Virus record (IMG/VR): IMGVR_UViG_3300011767_000002
Span: 1-64,000 of that record
Strand: one strand, 5' to 3'
DNA: 64,000 nucleotides
Origin: a virus
Lineage: Duplodnaviria > Caudoviricetes
Both the position numbers and the translations under genes were made by a program. Shown in pieces: positions 3,328 to 56,089 of this stretch; position 1 is the first letter of the stretch; each line of letters starts with the position of its first letter. The notes beneath the pieces were generated by a model. It did not search any database and had not been told where the DNA came from. It saw only the letters and a list, made by a program, of their open reading frames with translations.

Positions 3328-3771
3328 TTATGCTTTCAAGATGGCCAGTTCGCCGTACCACCTTAGGGAGGTGGGGGCGGCAACCAGCCGATTGGTTTCA
3401 GGGGTGATCACCTCGGTAAGGAAGTCATCGGCAGCAAACACCACCCCGGTGCGACGGGTGATGATACTGGCCACGTCATGGCTGACAATCTCACCGCTGT
3501 AGTCCACCGTAAAGCTGTGACCGAACACCTCGCCGATGTCCTGGCGGACCACGGTGATGTCACAACTGTTAATGAACCGATTGGCCTCGGCATTGGGTGC
3601 GGCCTGAATGGCACTGAGGCGGACGATGACCTCCGGCCCTGCGCTGGCAAACACCTGGTCAACCGTTACAAACCGAGGATTGAGCTGGGTGCCATGGGTG
3701 TCATTGAAGGCGATCAACAGTGCTTCCAATGGCGGGTATTGCAATAATTGATCTAACGTGAAATTGGCCAT
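3328..3771 (-). CDS. Virion structural protein, single-module paralog
   Basis: 147 aa, tightly packed in operon; LRWYGEL C-terminal motif. Confidence 0.6.
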   Translation of the reverse strand: MANFTLDQLLQYPPLEALLIAFNDTHGTQLNPRFVTVDQVFASAGPEVIVRLSAIQAAPNAEANRFINSCDITVVRQDIGEVFGHSFTVDYSGEIVSHDVASIITRRTGVVFAADDFLTEVITPETNRLVAAPTSLRWYGELAILKA

Positions 3772-3773
3772 GT

Positions 3774-4754
3774 TCAGACAGCCCTGTAATCGATGGTCAG
3801 TTCGCCAGTGTACCTGAGGTTGGTTTCACTGAAGAAGACGGTAAGGGTGTTAAGCTCCCCTGGGGCTATCGGAGCGTACGCTTCCTGCACGACATCACTC
3901 AAGGTCAATGGCATTCCGGTCAGGAGTTGCACCTGTTCAAGGATGTACCAAGTGGTTGGGGTCGAAGGCCCTTCGATCTCAAATTGTGCGCCATTGGTAC
4001 TCCAGCCAAAATCGTAGCGGGCGTAGGTCACGGTGATCTTACCCAGGTAATAGCCGTCACCCACTGCTTCCACTTCAATGGTGGTGTTGTCGGTGATGTA
4101 GCCGTTGACTTTAACCGGGTCGCTCCAGACCAGCAGTTCGGGTTCCAACTCATACGGCAAGGTATTTGCCACGGTCAGTTGCTGAAGCAGCTGGGTGGTG
4201 GGGTCATCTACAAAGTCGACCACATCCAAAAACCCAACCACAGCGGTCGTGGTCAGGACCTGTGCCAACTGTCGCTGGAGGGGCTTGACTGTGAACTGGT
4301 GATTGCCGTAGAGTAGAAACCGGTCGGGTAAAACCGACACCGTCAACGGACCGACCTGTTCAACGAGGCTGTCTTCTATCTGATCGGACCGGTCGTGCAG
4401 CGCCTGTCCTGTCAAATATACCGCCATTAAGTCGCGCACCGTGGCAGGTAAGTCGGCCCGGATGACCGACCCGTACCGGGCAGCCACTGCCGATAGCGCT
4501 ACCCGGCGGTAGCGTAGGGTGAGACCATCGCGATACTTCCACAGGTTGACATGAGCCTGCCCGCGGTCAACCGTTACCTCGACGCTGGCATCTGATGGGT
4601 CGAGAGGATCGACCGTAACAGCGCCGTGTTGAAAACCAGCTGGGTCTAGGTCGTCTTTTAACAGGGTTTGCAACAGGTGGTTAAACGCCGACCGGTCAGA
4701 TTCCTTCAAGGCAGCCTGAGTGAGCTGAACACCATTAAGGGTTTGTAAAGTCAT
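3774..4754 (-). CDS. Virion structural protein, two-module paralog
   Basis: Start taken at MTLQ (overlaps stop of upstream gene); internal duplication of the module; LRYTGEL ending. Confidence 0.6.
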   Translation of the reverse strand: MTLQTLNGVQLTQAALKESDRSAFNHLLQTLLKDDLDPAGFQHGAVTVDPLDPSDASVEVTVDRGQAHVNLWKYRDGLTLRYRRVALSAVAARYGSVIRADLPATVRDLMAVYLTGQALHDRSDQIEDSLVEQVGPLTVSVLPDRFLLYGNHQFTVKPLQRQLAQVLTTTAVVGFLDVVDFVDDPTTQLLQQLTVANTLPYELEPELLVWSDPVKVNGYITDNTTIEVEAVGDGYYLGKITVTYARYDFGWSTNGAQFEIEGPSTPTTWYILEQVQLLTGMPLTLSDVVQEAYAPIAPGELNTLTVFFSETNLRYTGELTIDYRAV

Positions 4755-6924
4755 TGCTCTGCGTCCTGTCAAATAGATCCACGATAGGCGCGGAAGACAT
4801 GGCTGGGATGGTTACCCGAAGACCTGTGAGCGTCGACAAATCGACCGTCTCCTGGCGCATGGCAACCATAGTAGTGCCTAACACCACCCCTCGTTGTATA
4901 TATTGGTTCAGCCCCGACAGGGCCATCTCAAGCCCCAGGCCCAAACCCATGTCATGGGCTGATCCGTGATCAAATGACCGGATACTGACCGCATTGGCAT
5001 CGATCACTCCTTTGAGCTTGGCGGCGCCGTAGAAATCCACGACCTTGGCCTGAGGAACCGGGGTGCGTAAGTCGTGCCCGGCTGAACCCCCGGTGTTATG
5101 GTACCGAAGGTGTGGCCAGTCAAACATGACCACGGCTTCTTCGTTGATCTCTTGGATGTACTGCACACTGTAACTGGACAACTGAGACATGATGCCAAGC
5201 ATCGCGGCTTGGACGTCCTTAAGGGTCTGGGCGGTGCGCAGTTCCAACCCAGTGGCCTGGTTGAGGACCGACAACATGATCTCATCCAGTTCCGCCGGCG
5301 AGTACGCCTCGAAGGTCAGACCGCGGTCGCGGAGCCATTCGGCATACACCTGACCGTGGTCAAGGTCCACGGGGATGTCCGCATAAAACCGATCAGTCAT
5401 GGCCCGTATTTCAGCATACTCGTAGAGCCCCTCACGGAACACGTACAGGTCGCGGTGAGACAGCATGCGGGTATGGATCTGAGTCGCAGCTTGCAAGAAC
5501 GCATCCACTGACACGTAGTTGGTGATGGTCACGTTATCCCGAAGGGCTTCACGGATAAAGGCGTCAGACGTGAATTGCCGGGTGGTGATGTTGCGCAATT
5601 CCTCAAAGGTGGGCAGAGGGGTGCGTCTGACCCGTTTAGCCATCAGTGACGGGATCGTCAACAACTCAATTCCAGAACGGCGCATGTACACGTATTGAAA
5701 GACGATGTACGCCTCTTTCATACTGAGTTTAAACGAATCGCCCCCGTTAGGCATCTGGAGGGTCAGGACCGTTTCGTACAGCCCTTTGTCTGCCAGATAA
5801 ATCCATTGGTTGAGCAGTACATCGGACAAGGTATAGGGTTCTGACTCCTTGAGGTCCAGGACGTTCGATTCCAGCACCTTGGTGTCCAGCTCAGCACTCA
5901 GGCTGCGCATCATGGACATGGGTACATATTGCTCGGCGTATTCGGTCTCCTGAATGTTCGACCGGGCCAGCCGACGTTGGAGGTTTAGCAGGCTCGGGGT
6001 GTCCTTGACATCTTCGCCCAATGCTGCCGCGAGGCCGTTGACACTGATTCGGGTGTATTGGATCTCCGGGTCAAAGTTCGCGGCAATGTCGCCGTCGTTC
6101 TGCTGAATGGTGTAGGTGGCCAGCGGAAAGTTGCGCTTGGTCAGCACCTGGTGAGTCAGTTCTTTAAACAGCTCATCTTTACCATTATTGCGCATGATGT
6201 ATCGAATGTTGCGGTAGAAGTACAGCCGCTGCGACTCGTTCATCTCGTTGTAATACTGGTCCAACGGCCCGAAAGAGGCCAGGTATCGGCGAATGTGGTA
6301 GCTGTGCGCCATATTCGTGCGGCAGTTGTCCAGGCGGATACTCTTGATCGCTGCCGGCAGGGACATAAAGAGCAGCGCCAAGCGGGCCGCAATGAACAGG
6401 CTGTTATTGATACGGTAGTCGTCATTGGCCCAGCGGACAAACTGAGCATTGATCCACTCTTGCAACTTTCCGATCAGGTTAGTTTCCCGGCCTTCAACCA
6501 ACGAACGGTCATAATAGAGAATACTATGATCCGGCGCAGCAATGGCTGCGTCCATGTCAACCGGATTCAAGATCCCGTGGATGAGCATGTCCTGGTGAGG
6601 GTAACGGTTGATCAGTTCTTTATAGTAGCGAGTGCCGTACTGATACTCACGCCAGGTGGCGCGGTGGATGTCCATGTTAGCACGGGTGAAGTCAATCTCT
6701 TCATGGGTGTCCATGGAGGTGACTTTCATCAAGGTGTCGGTAGGGTGGTACTGACCGGACAGGTTGAGATAATACTTCCAGGTGTTAGGGTGATTGTCCA
6801 ACACCTCGTGCTGAAGCATCCGCAAATAGCCGTTAATGGTGTCGCAGGTCGCCTCATCTTTCACCACGAGGGTGGCTGCGAGCTTGACCACCGATTCGTG
6901 ATAGATCTGATAAATTGTACTCAT
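4735..6924 (-). CDS. Large virion structural protein (phiKZ gp128-like)
   Basis: True start most likely MSTIYQ at 6924 (avoids overlap with portal); divergent from the portal as in phiKZ-like phages. Confidence 0.7.
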   Translation of the reverse strand: MSTIYQIYHESVVKLAATLVVKDEATCDTINGYLRMLQHEVLDNHPNTWKYYLNLSGQYHPTDTLMKVTSMDTHEEIDFTRANMDIHRATWREYQYGTRYYKELINRYPHQDMLIHGILNPVDMDAAIAAPDHSILYYDRSLVEGRETNLIGKLQEWINAQFVRWANDDYRINNSLFIAARLALLFMSLPAAIKSIRLDNCRTNMAHSYHIRRYLASFGPLDQYYNEMNESQRLYFYRNIRYIMRNNGKDELFKELTHQVLTKRNFPLATYTIQQNDGDIAANFDPEIQYTRISVNGLAAALGEDVKDTPSLLNLQRRLARSNIQETEYAEQYVPMSMMRSLSAELDTKVLESNVLDLKESEPYTLSDVLLNQWIYLADKGLYETVLTLQMPNGGDSFKLSMKEAYIVFQYVYMRRSGIELLTIPSLMAKRVRRTPLPTFEELRNITTRQFTSDAFIREALRDNVTITNYVSVDAFLQAATQIHTRMLSHRDLYVFREGLYEYAEIRAMTDRFYADIPVDLDHGQVYAEWLRDRGLTFEAYSPAELDEIMLSVLNQATGLELRTAQTLKDVQAAMLGIMSQLSSYSVQYIQEINEEAVVMFDWPHLRYHNTGGSAGHDLRTPVPQAKVVDFYGAAKLKGVIDANAVSIRSFDHGSAHDMGLGLGLEMALSGLNQYIQRGVVLGTTMVAMRQETVDLSTLTGLRVTIPAMSSAPIVDLFDRTQSNDFTNP

Positions 6925-49718: not shown

Positions 49719-51368
49719 ATGAATTACGCTGAAGTACCCGCGAAAGTCTGGCCCATGGTCTTGACTAAGGAACGGGTCAGTCGGATGACGCCGGTGACCA
49801 GTCTGGATATCTACGACGGCGCCAGCAGTGAGTTTCATGACGAGGGGCTTTACTCGACAAAGATCTTCGGGCGCATGGGGTCTGAGGAACGTGACCGTAA
49901 CTTTTCTTACCTCGATCTGAAAGTCCGGATCTTCCACCCGAAGATCTTCCGGGATCTGATGAGCCTCAAGGCCATCTACCGCGGCATTGTCACCGGGCGG
50001 GAGACCGCCATCTTTGACCCGGTGACCAAGGACTTCGTGGCGGACAAGTCAGAACATGCCGAGACCGGCTACAGCTTCTTTGTCCGACACTTCCATGAAC
50101 TGGAACTCAGGAAAAGCAAATCCCCGACCCGCATGATCCGGGTGGAGTTTATCAACCAGTGGCGTAACGAGGCCTTGACCCGATACATCCCCATTCTGCC
50201 CGCCGGACTGCGCGACATCGAGATCAGTGACACCGGTGCGGTGAGTAAGAACGAGATCCATGACCTGTATTACCGGGCCTTGTCCATCAGCAACACCATT
50301 CCCGTGACCAGTAACATGGAATCACCGGCATTGGACATTGCCCGCAACGCACTGACCAATTGCATGATGGAGATTTACGAACTGATCGAGGGGATGTTGT
50401 CTGGGAAGAACGGGTTTATTCTGGACAAGTGGGCCAGTCGACGGGTGGTCTATGGAACCCGTAACGTCTTGACCGTGATGGACACCTCCATCGCCAACCT
50501 GAGCGACACCAACGCCCCAGGCTTTGATGCCACCAGCTTAGGGTTGTTTCAGGTGATCAAAGGCCTGACCCCGGTGACGGTACACCACTTACGTCGGACG
50601 TTCGGGCACCTGATTCAATCGGGTGAAGGCCAAGCTCAACTGATCGATAAGAAGACGCTCAAACCGGTGTGGGTCTCATTATCCCCGGAGACGCGGGACA
50701 CCTGGACCACCCGTGATGGGTTGGTTAAAGTCATTGACCGTTACCAGATGGTGGAGATGCGGCACCGTGCCGTGGAAATCGAAGACCATTACCTGGCCCT
50801 GATCTATAAAGGAGCGGATAAGACGTTTCGTATCTTCTACGACATCGATGAACTGCCTGCTAACCTGGACCGGGCACACGTACACCCGATCAACCTAGTG
50901 GAAGTCTTGTACCTGTGCGGCTACGCGCATTGGAACAAGTACTTCGCACAGATCTGCCGCTACCCGATCTCAGGCAACCGCTCGATCTATGCCAGCCGTG
51001 TCTATGTCAAGACCACCGTGGTCGGTGAACGCCGAGTGGAGCTGGATGACCAGTGGCAGCCGTTAGAAGGCGATGAGTTCGTAGCGCTTGAGTTTCCGAT
51101 GACCGGGTCTACGTCTTATATGGACACGCAATCTCCGCACTCAACCAAGCTTGTAGGATTGGCGGCGGACTTTGACGGCGACACCGGCAGTGCTACATTG
51201 GTCATGTCCAATGAAGCCCTGGCTGAGAATGACCGGATTTTACGGTCTCGGCAATATTGGGTCGACACCGACGGCAGCCTGATGAGCTCCTACGACTACG
51301 ACACCATCAAGTACGTCACCACCAACCTGACAGGACGATTCAACCATGGCCGTAATGTTTCTCTATGA
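49719..51368 (+). CDS. rpoC: Virion RNA polymerase beta-prime, N-terminal/catalytic subunit (phiKZ gp180-like)
   Basis: GLYSTKIFG, RYIPILPAGLRD, catalytic ADFDGD; start taken at MNYAEV. Confidence 0.9.
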   Translation: MNYAEVPAKVWPMVLTKERVSRMTPVTSLDIYDGASSEFHDEGLYSTKIFGRMGSEERDRNFSYLDLKVRIFHPKIFRDLMSLKAIYRGIVTGRETAIFDPVTKDFVADKSEHAETGYSFFVRHFHELELRKSKSPTRMIRVEFINQWRNEALTRYIPILPAGLRDIEISDTGAVSKNEIHDLYYRALSISNTIPVTSNMESPALDIARNALTNCMMEIYELIEGMLSGKNGFILDKWASRRVVYGTRNVLTVMDTSIANLSDTNAPGFDATSLGLFQVIKGLTPVTVHHLRRTFGHLIQSGEGQAQLIDKKTLKPVWVSLSPETRDTWTTRDGLVKVIDRYQMVEMRHRAVEIEDHYLALIYKGADKTFRIFYDIDELPANLDRAHVHPINLVEVLYLCGYAHWNKYFAQICRYPISGNRSIYASRVYVKTTVVGERRVELDDQWQPLEGDEFVALEFPMTGSTSYMDTQSPHSTKLVGLAADFDGDTGSATLVMSNEALAENDRILRSRQYWVDTDGSLMSSYDYDTIKYVTTNLTGRFNHGRNVSL

Positions 51369-54300
51369 CCGCTATGTCAAGCTGTTTGGCATCCGTCGCT
51401 TGGGCGGGCTGGAAAACCCCAAGGTCCGACCGATTGCCCGCCTAGCGTTTCCACGCGGCACCACGTTCCACCACATGCCCATGTCTGAAACCGAACTGGG
51501 GCCGGCCAACGACCACATGGCGATCCAAGCGGCTCAACGCTTGGTCTACATCGACCACGTACCAGACCTGCTAGCAAAGGAAGGCAATCCCCGCCCTACC
51601 TATAAACTCCTCGCGCCAATGCAAACGCAGTACCGCCGGGAACACATGATGCTGCGCCCGATGCGCGACTACGAAGGGGCGACCAAAGAACTGCTTAACA
51701 CCGTGGTGGTCAACTACGCCATGGTCGGGCAAATGTACAAATACATGCGGTCTGCACTGAGTCGGTGGTGGGCGTGGAAGAACATGCGCTCTACCATGTG
51801 GGAACGGATCAACCAACTCAAGACCCCGCACGAACGCCATCACATTGTCGTGTTTGATGTCCCAAGCTCCCTGCCCTCGTTGTCGGATCTGCGCAAGGCA
51901 GAACGGGGCATCAGCCCCGTCTTGATGAACAAGGTCTTCAACACACGTGAGCGGTTGGACCTGCTGGATATCTGGACCTGGCTCGGCGAGCACCGGGCGC
52001 TGGCGCCCATGGCGCGGCTGGATATAACCCGGCTGCACGAAGTGGACCTATTGATTCGCAAGGACACTGGTTGGCTCACGTTGAACCTAGGCACCCTCAA
52101 CAGCTGGCGTCGCGAAGATGCTGTGGTCTCCTTGGAAAGCCTCCAGGAAGAACACCCTGAAGAGTCGTTCGATTTCGAGGCCACCTACGACCGCTATGTG
52201 TCACTGGAAATGGCGGGGGATGACACGCTCGATGCTGACCTGATTCATCCGTCCATGGAAGCCGCAACGGGACTCGATCCTAAGATCATTCAGATCCGTT
52301 TCCTGAAGATGCTGACCAAGGTCATTAACCAGACCAACCCACTGGTCACAGTGCCTGACGAACCAGAGGAAGTGGCGGCCGATGACGAACTGCGCGAGCA
52401 GGAAGAAGCCCGCGATGATGCCGACACCGCACAGCAATTAAGAGAAGAGGCCGGCACCGCGGCTGAATTCATCGAAGCCGAGGAAGAAGAACTGGCAGCG
52501 GAACTGGACGCCCCAAGTACCGGCGGGAACGATGCGATCATGACGGATGAGGACGGTGAGTTGATCATCGAGGCCGATCCCGATACCCGCGAAGAGGCAC
52601 CCCTGGCCATCAGTTCTTCTGCCGTCTCCCATACCCTGACCAGCGCAATTCAGTCAAAGCTCGACGAGCTGGTGGACAAGGACCTGTACACTGCGGCGCA
52701 ATACCGGCGGATGCAGCGCTTGGCTGAGTCCTACAAGTCCATGCCCGACCCATGGGACAAGGGTCAGACGGTGGAAGAAGCCATGGTCATCACAGATGAG
52801 GACTTGGTGCTCGGAGATGCCGAGAACTACCCGAAGTCTGATGCAGTGCGCGATGAAACGATGTTGCAGTCCACGGTTGAAAAGATGGACAGCCAGTACA
52901 TCGAAAAGGTCATGAAGAAAGACATCCTCAATGCGGTGATGTCGGTTCAGAAGGCTGGGATCGCGGTCACGGGTTACACGGTTGAGACGGTTGAAGATGC
53001 CGTGAGCCACTACGAGATCCACAAGGTCCAACTGACTCCGGTAACCGGCAAGCCTTCCACGATCAGCTTCCGGGTCCCGGTGGTGGATAAACGAGGCGTC
53101 TATGTCAGCAACGGGCAACGCTATCGCTTACGAACTCAAAAGGCCGATATTCCGATTCGGAAGGTCAATGAGTCGCGGGTGGCGCTGACGTCTTATTACA
53201 GTAAACTGTTTGTCGAGCGTTCGCAGCGGGCAGTGTTCAACTACGATAACTGGATTGGCAAACAGATCATTGCCAAGGGCCTGGACCAAGCTGACACCAG
53301 CATCACCAATGTAAAGGTGGCCAACGTCGCTGACTATGCACTCGACCTCCCCACGATCTACACCGTGATCGGGACACGGGTGATGAGCTTTGAAGCGAAC
53401 GGTCATTATTGGTTCGACTATAAGAACCGCTTGCGTTCAAGGCTGTTCGAACAAACGGCGCTGACACACTTGGAGACCGCGCACAAAGGCATGGTGGTCT
53501 GCGGACGCCGCGACCAGCGCTACATCATGGTCGACCGCAGCAACATGTTTTATTTGGCCAGTCTGGACAATGACCACGTCAGTGAACTGGGACACATCGA
53601 AGACATCCTCGGGTTGCCGCGGGACAAAGCACCGGTGAACATGGCGGAGATCAGCATCTTCGGTAAAACCATGCCGGTGGGCATTGCCTTGGCGTACCTG
53701 ATTGGGTTTGACCGGCTGCTGGAGATGAGCAAAGCCCAGTACCGGGCGGTGCCATTGGGCACGCGGTTGCAGATGGCCGATGACGAGTATGCGATCAAGT
53801 TCCTCGATGAGACACTGGTCCTGGATAAGAGTGACGCGCAAAACAGTCTGGTGTTTGCAGGGTTCTTGCACTACCACAAGCAAGTGCGGAGCTTCAGTCG
53901 ACACAGCTTCAATAACAAGGACGTGTACTTCAACCTGCTAGAAGCCAACAACATCGGCTTGCGCTACCTGCGTGAGCTGGACCTGATGAGCGCCATGTGG
54001 GTCGATCCGATCACCAAGGGCGTGTTGGAGTGGATGAAGGAGCCGACCGAGTTTATCCCATTGCTGCTCAGGGCATGTGAACTGCTGATCACCCGGTATG
54101 TGCCGGATAAGGTCGAGAACGCAGAAGGGCTGGTAGAGTGCATGGAGCGTGCCAAGGGCTATGAACGGATTCCAGGGGCGGTGTATGGCGAACTGGTCCG
54201 GTCCATTCGGGTGTACAATTCGCGCAATGCCAGTAACGGCTCACAGGTGACGATGAAACCACACGAGATCTGGACCAACATCGTCCAGGACCCGGCGTCG

Positions 54301-54620
54301 GCCATCGTGGATGACATCAACCCCATTCAAAACCTCAAGCAGAAAGAGATCATCACTTACGGCGGCCGAGGCGGGCGCAGTAGTCGGTCGATGACAGCCG
54401 AGGCGCGACTGTATAAGGAAAGTGACATCGGGTTCATTTCCGAGAGCACGGTGGACTCTGGTGACGTGGCGGTGATTACCTACATGACACCGAATGCCAA
54501 TATCACCAGTGTACGCGGTACCGTGCGCGCGTTCAACAAGGACACTGACGGTTCGGCCAACTTGGTCTCGACCTCAGCGCTGGTCTCGCCTTTCGCTGAT
54601 CGAGATGACCCCAAACGGGT
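51346..54620 (+). CDS. rpoB: Virion RNA polymerase beta (phiKZ gp178-like), exon 1
   Basis: TYGGRGGRS, ESTVDSG, SPFADRDDPKRV correspond to beta HDDANRA; the frame then runs into the intron. Confidence 0.85.
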
Positions 54621-54969
54621 GTGTAAAATCGCCCTTACTTCTTTAATTGCTGGAACCCCCTAAAGCTGTCTCACCACTGCGCGGCGAAAGCCAAAGCCAC
54701 GGTTTGAAAACGAGACAGATACTGCAATGGGCAATCAGCAGCGAAGACCCTACCGACTGTCGGGAGACAGGCCAGGGGTAACGTTCATCGACTATCCCGC
54801 AAGGGAGTACTCAGGCAGCGCCTGGGGAAACAGGAAGCACAGGTTTGACTCCAAGGCCTGTGAAGATATAGTCAGCTCCTTAGGGAAAGCCTAAGGCGGG
54901 TGTCTGCGCACACCGGGTTTCGAATAGGACGTCAGACGTGACAAACAGCGTTCGAAACTGGACAACAGG
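54621..54969 (+). mobile_element. Group I intron (IA2-like), no homing endonuclease
   Basis: P aattgctggaac 54645, Q aatcagcag 54733, R gttcatcgacta 54783, S aagatatagtc 54863; P7 GACUA/UAGUC; U.G pair at the 5' splice site; terminal G; removal restores DDPKRVNFIGIQ. Confidence 0.9.
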
Positions 54970-56089
54970 GAACTTCATTGGGATTCAGCAGTCCCACGTG
55001 ATTTCGGCAGAAGGCTACCGGGAATCGCCAATCTCCACCGGGTACGATCACATCCTGGCCCACCGGGTCGATGAGATCTTTGCGGTCCCAGCCGAACAGG
55101 CCGGAGAGGTGGTGGAACGGTCCGATGAACACATGGTGGTGGCCTACGAAGACGGGACCTTTGCGCACATTGACTTGGCGACCCAGTACGGGGTCTCGGC
55201 AGGTTCGGTGTACCCGCAAAAGCAAGCCAGTACCTTCCAGCTGGGCGACAAAGTGCAAAAGGGCGACATCCTCAAGTACAACTCGGGCTTCTTCAAGCCT
55301 AGTAAATTCCATCGCCATCAAGTGCAATGGATGGCTGGAGTGATTGCGCGGACCGCACTGATGGAAGCGTCCTACACCCTGGAAGACTCCTCGGCTATGG
55401 ACGATTGGCTGGCCCAGCAACTGGGGTCACAGGTAACCAAAATCAAGACCATCGTGGTACGGTTTGACCAGACAGTCAGGAACTTGGTTAAGGAAGGGGA
55501 CAACACCGACATCACGAGTATCTTATGCACGATTGAAGATGCTGTAACAGCGGATTCGGGACTCTTCTCTGATGACGACCTTGAGACCCTTCGGATGATG
55601 TCGTCCGCGACCCCTACTGCAGGGGCTGTAGGCGAGGTGTCGAAGATTGAGGTTTTCTACCACGGTGACACGGACGACATGTCCGATTCGCTGTTGGAGT
55701 TGGTCACTGCCCAAGACAAACGTCGCCGTAAGGTGGCCAAGCGTCTAGGCAAACCAGTGGTCACAGGTCAAGTGGATCAGTCCTTGCGCATTGACGGGAA
55801 TGGTCTGGAACTCGATCACGTCGCCATTAAAGTCTACATCACTCACCGTGAAGGCATGGGCGTGGGCGATAAGGCAGTGTTCTGTAACCAAATGAAAACG
55901 GTCGTGGGTCACCGCTTGAGCGGGATCAATGAAACGTTCAGTGGGCGACAGATCAATGCCATCTTCGGCGCGAAATCGGTCATGGACCGGATTGTATTGT
56001 CCGCCCTATTGATCGGGATGTCGATTTCGGTGCAGACCGCGATCGGTGAGAAAGCTGCAGCGATGTGGCTGGGTAATGACACCAAGTAG
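54970..56089 (+). CDS. rpoB: Virion RNA polymerase beta (phiKZ gp178-like), exon 2
   Basis: NFIGIQQSHV, EDS, GDK..NQMKTV and GAKS motifs of the beta C-terminal half. Confidence 0.85.

Follow-up and report, generated by a model that had tools for sequence, protein, structure and literature searches.

Among the group I introns of phages, that of PhiPA3 is one of the closest known systems. It interrupts gp211/209, which encodes the beta subunit of the virion-packaged RNA polymerase (vRNAP) and is a homologue of phiKZ gp178 (PMC11620839); the PhiPA3 record likewise equates it with phiKZ gp178. The intron is situated directly after two Asp codons (PMC11620839): exon 1 ends with ...aacgatgat and is followed by gp210, then by the ribozyme core, and exon 2 starts with atgaaacgcgtc. 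The intron endonuclease, aimed at the vRNAP beta gene, can decide the competition between co-infecting jumbo phages (PMC11620839). Introns without any open reading frame (ORF) are represented by 13 of the 45 group I introns of Bastillevirinae (PMC11878797), and the polymerase introns of Bastille and SPO1 occupy the same position (PMC3428280). The IA2 subgroup is heterogeneous (PMC11878797); the intron of Pf-WMP3 was assigned to it by the presence of P7.1 and P7.2 joined by G-U-A, and it has no P2 (PMC3428280).

The window considered here, i.e. the whole stretch of 64,000 nt that was analysed, belongs to a 79,940-b contig of a metagenome assembly, estimated to cover ~30% of the genome. With a probability of about 0.9, its positions 54621-54969 represent a phage-IA2-type self-splicing group I intron without a homing-endonuclease gene, inserted into the virion RNA polymerase beta gene of an uncultivated DT01-like jumbo phage of the phiKZ type. 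The corresponding parts of the gene are as follows.

51346..54620, + strand: exon 1 of the virion RNA polymerase beta gene, ending at the second base of a Val codon
54621..54969, + strand: group I intron of 349 nt, IA2-like, without an endonuclease ORF and without P2 (RF00028, 55.3 bits; 349-nt gap against DT01 and 16 IMG/VR relatives; covariation)
54970..56089, + strand: exon 2, homologue of PhiPA3 gp209, stop codon included (translation, BLASTP)

The group I covariance model of Rfam (RF00028), a check proposed in an earlier sequence-only reading of this DNA, gave a match at 54565-54896 (+) with 55.3 bits and E 2.6e-11, above the curated gathering score of 50 bits. It was the sole Rfam match in the window and in the whole 79,940-b contig. 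The coordinates of this match do not coincide with the intron ends, as the P1-P2 part of the model was placed on exon 1 and the match ends at P9; the true ends are fixed by intron-less homologues. Megablast of 54000-55600 against the closest relative in culture, Pseudomonas phage pPa_SNUABM_DT01 (DT01), resulted in two pieces, in which 1601 query bases corresponded to 1252 record bases, leaving a gap of exactly 349 nt. DT01 has uninterrupted ...aagcgggtgaacttc... at the intron position, and the same uninterrupted motif was found in 16 of the 18 related IMG/VR loci. Thus, exon 1 ends at T54620, the intron occupies 54621-54969 with G54969 as its last base, and exon 2 starts at G54970; these are the boundaries given by the sequence-only reading. 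A shift of both ends by one base leads to an identical mRNA, but places G instead of U before the 5' splice site, so that 54621-54969 is the canonical choice. Removal of the intron restores the reading frame as ...DDPKR-V-NFIGIQQSH, the spliced product read earlier, and this agrees with the uninterrupted homologues. An alternative boundary once mentioned, 54625-54970, would add a Cys and was ruled out, because this extra residue is present in no homologue.

The unspliced ORF (51346-54663) runs 14 codons into the intron and meets a stop codon there. The two exons, of 3275 nt and 1120 nt (stop included), give 1464 codons, collinear with the 1463-aa protein of DT01; exon 1 is collinear with PA10_00093 of this phage. 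BLASTP of the exon 1 product against PhiPA3 gp211 showed 33% identity over 1120 aa (E 0), and that of the exon 2 product against gp209 showed 45% identity over 367 aa (E 5e-109), which supports the view that the host gene is that of vRNAP beta, equivalent to the intron-bearing gene of PhiPA3. A Pfam search of both exons gave no matches, this family being too diverged, and the gene was therefore identified by BLASTP to PhiPA3 and by phmmer to Thermus beta. When the DT01 protein was aligned by phmmer with the Thermus RNAP beta subunit, ...DRDDPKRVNFIGIQQSHV was found under ...EHDDANRALMGSNMQTQAV, in accordance with the suggested register with bacterial DDANRALMG.NMQ.Q; the second Asp of DD corresponds to E. 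coli D675 in the naming of PMC11620839. The annotation of DT01 gives the same gene identity, and a prohead protease gene follows there. In the studied contig, the beta' gene overlaps with that of beta, so that no gene lies between them.

The helix pairs of the predicted intron structure were checked base by base and are listed below, the three larger domains before their own helices.

54617-54634, + strand: P1 hairpin, strands 54617-21/54630-34, exon GGGU and intron G paired with the guide CGCCC (54630-54634), loop of 8 nt
54638..54784, + strand: P3 5' strand and P4-P6 domain, all pairs standard
54638-43, + strand: P3 5' strand, cttctt, which pairs with aggaag
54648-53/54735-40, + strand: P4
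54656-58/54729-31, + strand: P5
54666-72/54712-18, + strand: P5a, ctgtctc/gagacag
54673-75/54701-03, + strand: P5b
54683-85/54690-92, + strand: P5c, GAAA loop
54741-42/54783-84, + strand: P6
54747-51/54775-79, + strand: P6a
54757-61/54766-70, + strand: P6b
54790..54873, + strand: catalytic P3-P8 domain, pairs checked
54790-94/54869-73, + strand: P7, the guanosine-binding helix
54795-98/54803-06, + strand: P7.1, GCAA loop
54807-09, + strand: GUA linker between P7.1 and P7.2
54810-16/54820-26, + strand: P7.2
54832-37, + strand: P3 3' strand
54838-43/54857-62, + strand: P8
54863-68, + strand: J8/7
54878..54969, + strand: 3' domain, from folding
54878-84/54890-96, + strand: P9
54899-903/54910-14, + strand: P9.1
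54918-24/54951-57, + strand: P9.2
54958-54969, + strand: 12-nt tail CTGGACAA..., ending in the terminal G54969

U54620 and G54631 form the wobble pair of P1 at the 5' splice site. With its 5 bp, P1 is short, and P10 has at most 2 bp; P2 is absent, only UUA being situated between P1 and P3. The P, Q, R and S elements agree with the Rfam consensus, and all 349 nt are accounted for by ribozyme helices. Every helix named in the sequence-only reading (P1 with its U.G pair, P3, the ctgtctc/gagacag stem, P7.1, P7.2, P8 and P9) does pair in the sequence. The word minimal, used there for the intron, is not appropriate, since the P5a-c, P6a/b, P7.1, P7.2, P9.1 and P9.2 extensions are present and only P2 is missing.

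The P3-P9 part was aligned by MAFFT with the introns of PAP02, YH6, Pollock, 2050HW, PA7, L017, HPP-Temi and PhiPA3, nine introns in all with the studied one. Standard pairs were found in 83.0% of the cells (69 pairs x 9 introns), while this value was 38.6-49.7% when the 3' partners were slid by 1-3 columns; 32 of the 69 pairs changed on both sides, compared with 8-16 in the slid controls, and none of 500 shuffles reached the observed values of pairing or covariation. Changes on both sides were distributed between P3 (5 of 6 pairs), P5a (6/7), P5c (3/3), P6a (3/5), P6b (3/5) and P8 (6/6); P4, P6 and P7 are invariant across the nine introns and so give no evidence either way. Covariation in this alignment argues strongly for P3, P5a, P5c, P6a and P8. 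P7.1, P7.2 and P9 vary in length among the relatives and for this reason were misplaced by MAFFT. Folding of single sequences showed that all eight relatives form hairpins at the places of P7.1, P7.2, P8 and P9 with different stem sequences, and the GUA linker of P7.1 and P7.2 is present in all of them. The minimum-free-energy fold of the studied intron recovers most of the helices, but its z of -1.70, with 6 of 100 shuffles folding as well, is only modestly better than that of shuffled sequences, and the group I case therefore rests on the model score, the covariation and the exact boundaries.

P7.1 and P7.2 lie between P7 and the 3' strand of P3 and are linked by G-U-A, as in the likewise P2-less intron of Pf-WMP3. 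Assignment by this feature (PMC3428280) to IA2, the subgroup named already in the sequence-only reading, thus seems reasonable.

A homing endonuclease of the PhiPA3 gp210 type was not found in the intron. Only two ORFs, of 44 aa and 55 aa, overlap it; both lie over ribozyme helices and neither had a match in a Pfam search, so that the earlier statement that no ORF fits inside holds in substance. It had also been proposed to look for a free-standing HNH gene in the genome. HNH_3, HNH, GIY-YIG, PhiPA3 gp210 and the L019 intron protein (see below) were sought in the 79.9-kb contig with no matches; as this contig corresponds to ~30% of the genome, an endonuclease encoded elsewhere in it is possible.

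Splicing of the intron may be expected from its intact core. In the two-step reaction known for group I introns, the pre-mRNA would fold into P1-P9.2, and free guanosine bound in P7 would attack the bond after U54620, presented by the U-G wobble of P1. The freed end of exon 1 would then attack after the terminal G54969, joining ...CGGGT to GAACTTC..., so that the junction would read ...AAACGGGT followed directly by GAACTTC.... The product would be translated into a single beta subunit of 1464 aa with an intact DDPKRVNFIGIQQ active-site segment.

Two insertion sites should be distinguished in this gene segment. Site A, directly after the two Asp (DD) codons, is used by PhiPA3, L017, HPP-Temi and Serratia phage 2050HW. 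Site B, that of the studied intron, is 11 nt downstream, after ...ccc aaa cgg gt, i.e. after the second base of the Val codon. Exactly at site B, a 1361-nt intron was found in the IMG/VR contig IMGVR_UViG_3300009095_000014 (L019), the only other IMG/VR contig with an intron at this place: exon 1 ends with ...aaacgagt, the intron ends with ...caagtg, exon 2 starts with taacttcatc, and both exon frames fit. The ORF of this intron has 37% identity with gp210 over 317 aa (E 4e-62) and weak Pfam matches to HNH_3 and I-HmuI-like families. Because L019 carries a gp210-family HNH intron precisely there, site B is a true homing site for an enzyme of the gp210 family, other than the site already published. 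The contig IMGVR_UViG_3300018411_000019 (L017) has a 1386-nt intron at site A with an HNH ORF 42% identical to gp210. A comparison of the insertion site with that of PhiPA3, suggested earlier, gave a different position, 11 nt downstream; the idea that the intron protects against competitors had been made dependent on a known homing site, and this objection does not apply, since a gp210-family HNH intron occupies the same site in L019.

Introns in this segment are an exception. In a tblastn census of public phages, the segment was found in 278 records; 267 of these have a single place that accounts for 80% or more of the 120-aa query, and among the 60 matches listed, 57 are one uninterrupted piece. 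A scan of IMG/VR with a 23-mer from P3-P5 gave nothing, and a P9.1 pattern gave the contig of L019 alone. The exact 26-mer from P7.1-P7.2 was not found in a metagenome scan; a looser 16-base pattern gave 120 loci, none of them real. Identity to 15 relatives, measured in 60-nt windows, showed no dip or peak at the junction, a comparison with little power for a co-conversion tract, as all the relatives are ~80% identical.

Some other introns and insertions were observed in the course of these searches. In L017, the same vRNAP beta gene is interrupted by two group I introns that Rfam recognises (1850-2264 and 3712-5097); the upstream one is ORF-less by ORF listing, and the other is situated at the DD site and has the gp210-like HNH gene. 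Phikzvirus PA7 (locus 4961-5265), as well as OMKO1, fnug, Brmt and W10-2, has an ORF-less group I intron (74.8 bits) between two CDS beside the nuclear shell gene, which appears to lie in another RNAP subunit gene. Serratia phage BUCT660 (locus about 478-900) and Yaphecito carry an ORF-less insertion of ~420 nt at or beside the DD site; it was dropped as evidence, as no 3' splice site with a terminal G restoring DDPKR could be placed. Segments ~80% identical to P9-P9.1 of the studied intron are present in Shewanella phage FishSpeaker and Klebsiella phage phiKp_32, the former segment lying between two 'RNA polymerase beta subunit' CDS and adjoining an HNH gene. Wastewater runs of four studies, compared as DNA contigs, contain short contigs identical to the intron interior (within window positions 54638-55062), without exons, and one diverged contig, with 16 differences, that extends over the 3' splice site. 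These pieces give a hint that the element is in circulation among wastewater phages. A look for RNA runs covering the region gave none.

The preferred explanation is that the studied intron would be an endonuclease-less stage or form of a mobile lineage, which in L019 occupies the same site together with a gp210-family HNH nickase. It would be a passenger in this phage, unable to home by itself, and as a side effect it would split the DNA sequence targeted by gp210-family nickases. The endonuclease gene may have been either lost from this lineage or never acquired; loss is plausible. The P3-P8 core of L019 belongs to a different lineage.

Compatible with this explanation is a possible but, in our opinion, somewhat improbable reading in which the ORF-less intron is kept as an immunity allele, splitting the nickase target of co-infecting relatives at a near-zero cost to an essential gene. 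PhiPA3 gp210 nicks the intron-less gene and cripples phiKZ, and escape from gp210 is conferred by mutations 2 nt ahead of the PhiPA3 site, in the codon of the second Asp (PMC11620839); close relatives carry gp210-like endonucleases at the DD site (L017, 42%) and at site B (L019, 37%). Being 11 nt from the DD site, the studied intron parts the Asp codons from the conserved downstream exon, and it occupies the L019-type site outright. Phage HNH nickases differ in this respect: I-PfoP3I is unable to cut intron-plus DNA, but the related enzymes I-HmuI and I-HmuII cut both intron-plus and intron-less DNA (PMC3428280). Overexpression of gp210 lowers the fitness even of PhiPA3 ~10-fold (PMC11620839 supplement), and 16 of the 18 relatives live without any intron here. 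A broader picture, for which we have rather limited credence, is that the DDPKRVNF segment of chimallivirus vRNAP beta contains two homing sites 11 nt apart with gp210-family nickases at both, that endonuclease-free introns (the studied one and that of HPP-Temi) are cheap immunity alleles blocking the nickases of both sites, and that in this arms race introns shift position and shuffle ribozyme modules. It is unlikely that the intron homes in trans, an endonuclease encoded in the rest of the genome or by a co-infecting phage cutting intron-less alleles and repair copying the intron in. There are precedents: the nrdB intron of T4, itself defunct, is mobilised by MobE, and a free-standing endonuclease can act in collaborative homing (PMC2790892); a matching HNH enzyme for site B exists in nature (L019), and phiKZ-type phages have free-standing HNH genes beside the vRNAP beta gene, phiKZ gp179 being named in the annotation of PhiPA3. 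Against this, the searches of the 79.9-kb contig for HNH, GIY-YIG, gp210-like and L019-like sequences were without a match, the overlapping beta' and beta genes leave no place for a gene between them, and the intron is rare, with one other IMG/VR contig at site B.

Two further readings deny that the intron is a functional one or that it belongs to this genome. If the ribozyme no longer spliced, the beta subunit would consist of two polypeptides; phiKZ-type phages already have RNAP subunits divided among several polypeptides, and a GTG at 54938 opens a 383-aa ORF. Such a break would sit inside the most conserved active-site segment, the core elements, the U-G pair and the terminal G are all intact, and no relative is split here without an intron, so we regard a dead intron as very improbable. 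Still harder to believe is an assembly chimera, in which 349 nt were joined in from another phage of the sample. The contig is indeed a metagenome assembly, and in other wastewater runs the intron interior is represented only by short exact fragments lacking the exons, but a chimera would not hit canonical splice sites exactly, with an exon-complementary guide and a restored frame, and one wastewater contig does span the 3' splice site.

ORF-less group I introns are common in phages, and one of them, in HPP-Temi, is already present in the same gene in a public genome. Modestly new are the second insertion site, 11 nt from that of PhiPA3, with a gp210-family enzyme belonging to it, and the occurrence of endonuclease-free and endonuclease-bearing introns at both sites. 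The locus provides natural material for testing the defensive side of the PhiPA3 story, namely whether a bare ribozyme suffices for phage immunity. As to annotation, the gene should be joined across the intron; in public records, for example that of HPP-Temi, it is split into two CDS.

In comparison with the PhiPA3 intron, the studied one shares the host gene and a homologous ribozyme, and the insertion site differs. The core is 77% identical over nt 18-132 of the studied intron, and the P5a-c arm, P7.1-GUA-P7.2 and P9 are common to both. The PhiPA3 intron is 1352 nt long, contains a 330-aa HNH gene between P1 and a P2-like hairpin, with the ribozyme core positioned after gp210, and is inserted after the DD codons, whereas the studied intron, of 349 nt, has neither an ORF nor P2, lies 11 nt downstream and possesses a different guide and a different P9.1-P9.2 tail. 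The intron of Pseudomonas phage HPP-Temi (PP968062) is similar in size (348 nt), also ORF-less, located in the same gene and a member of the same family of ribozymes, with 78% identity over ~100 nt (for HPP-Temi, 70.5 bits in Rfam), but it occupies the DD site and keeps a P2 region of ~75 nt. In its record, this intron (locus 1919-2266) is unannotated, the place being given as two 'RNA polymerase beta subunit' CDS and a 39-aa hypothetical protein. ORF-less introns of Bastillevirinae and the T4 nrdB intron, phage IA2 introns with no working endonuclease, resemble the studied one in that they self-splice, reside in conserved enzyme genes and are unable to home by themselves; they differ in genes and phage groups, and T4 nrdB keeps a defunct ORF, while no remnant is present here.

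The undescribed intron of L019 has the identical insertion site, after CG(A/G)GT, and the same P1 design, with exon GAGU and guide GCUC against GGGU and GCCC in the studied intron, a compensatory change at position -3. P9-P9.1 of the two introns are 79% identical (78.9%, 57 nt), and the tail CTGGACAA is common to them only, site-A introns sharing a different one (TAACGAA...GAAGA...CG); P9.2 of L019 has a different sequence and still pairs. In contrast, the L019 intron is 1361 nt long, encodes a gp210 homologue and has a P3-P8 core of another lineage, which scores only 31 bits in Rfam. At the nucleotide level, the P3-P5-P4 region is matched best by the introns of Litunavirus PAP02 and YH6, situated in the N4 gp16-like RNAP2 gene, with 83.6% over 107 nt for PAP02. 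Their P5b/c arm is nearly identical to that of the studied intron, and the same pairing of 5' exon GGGU with guide GCCC is present; they differ from it in interrupting an unrelated gene, in having a P2 hairpin and an ORF in their 3' portion, and in the sequences of P6, P7.1-7.2 and P8. These introns are found at locus 2453-2716 (PAP02) and 1953-2218 (YH6), with splice sites taken from annotation only. This likeness hints at an exchange of intron modules between unrelated Pseudomonas phages. Module exchange among T4 introns was reportedly described by Bryk and Belfort (1990). In the studied intron, the P3-P5-P4 region is closest to PAP02 and PhiPA3, and P1 with its guide, P9-P9.1 and the tail are like those of L019, a mosaic pattern that suggests the exchange of modules between introns.
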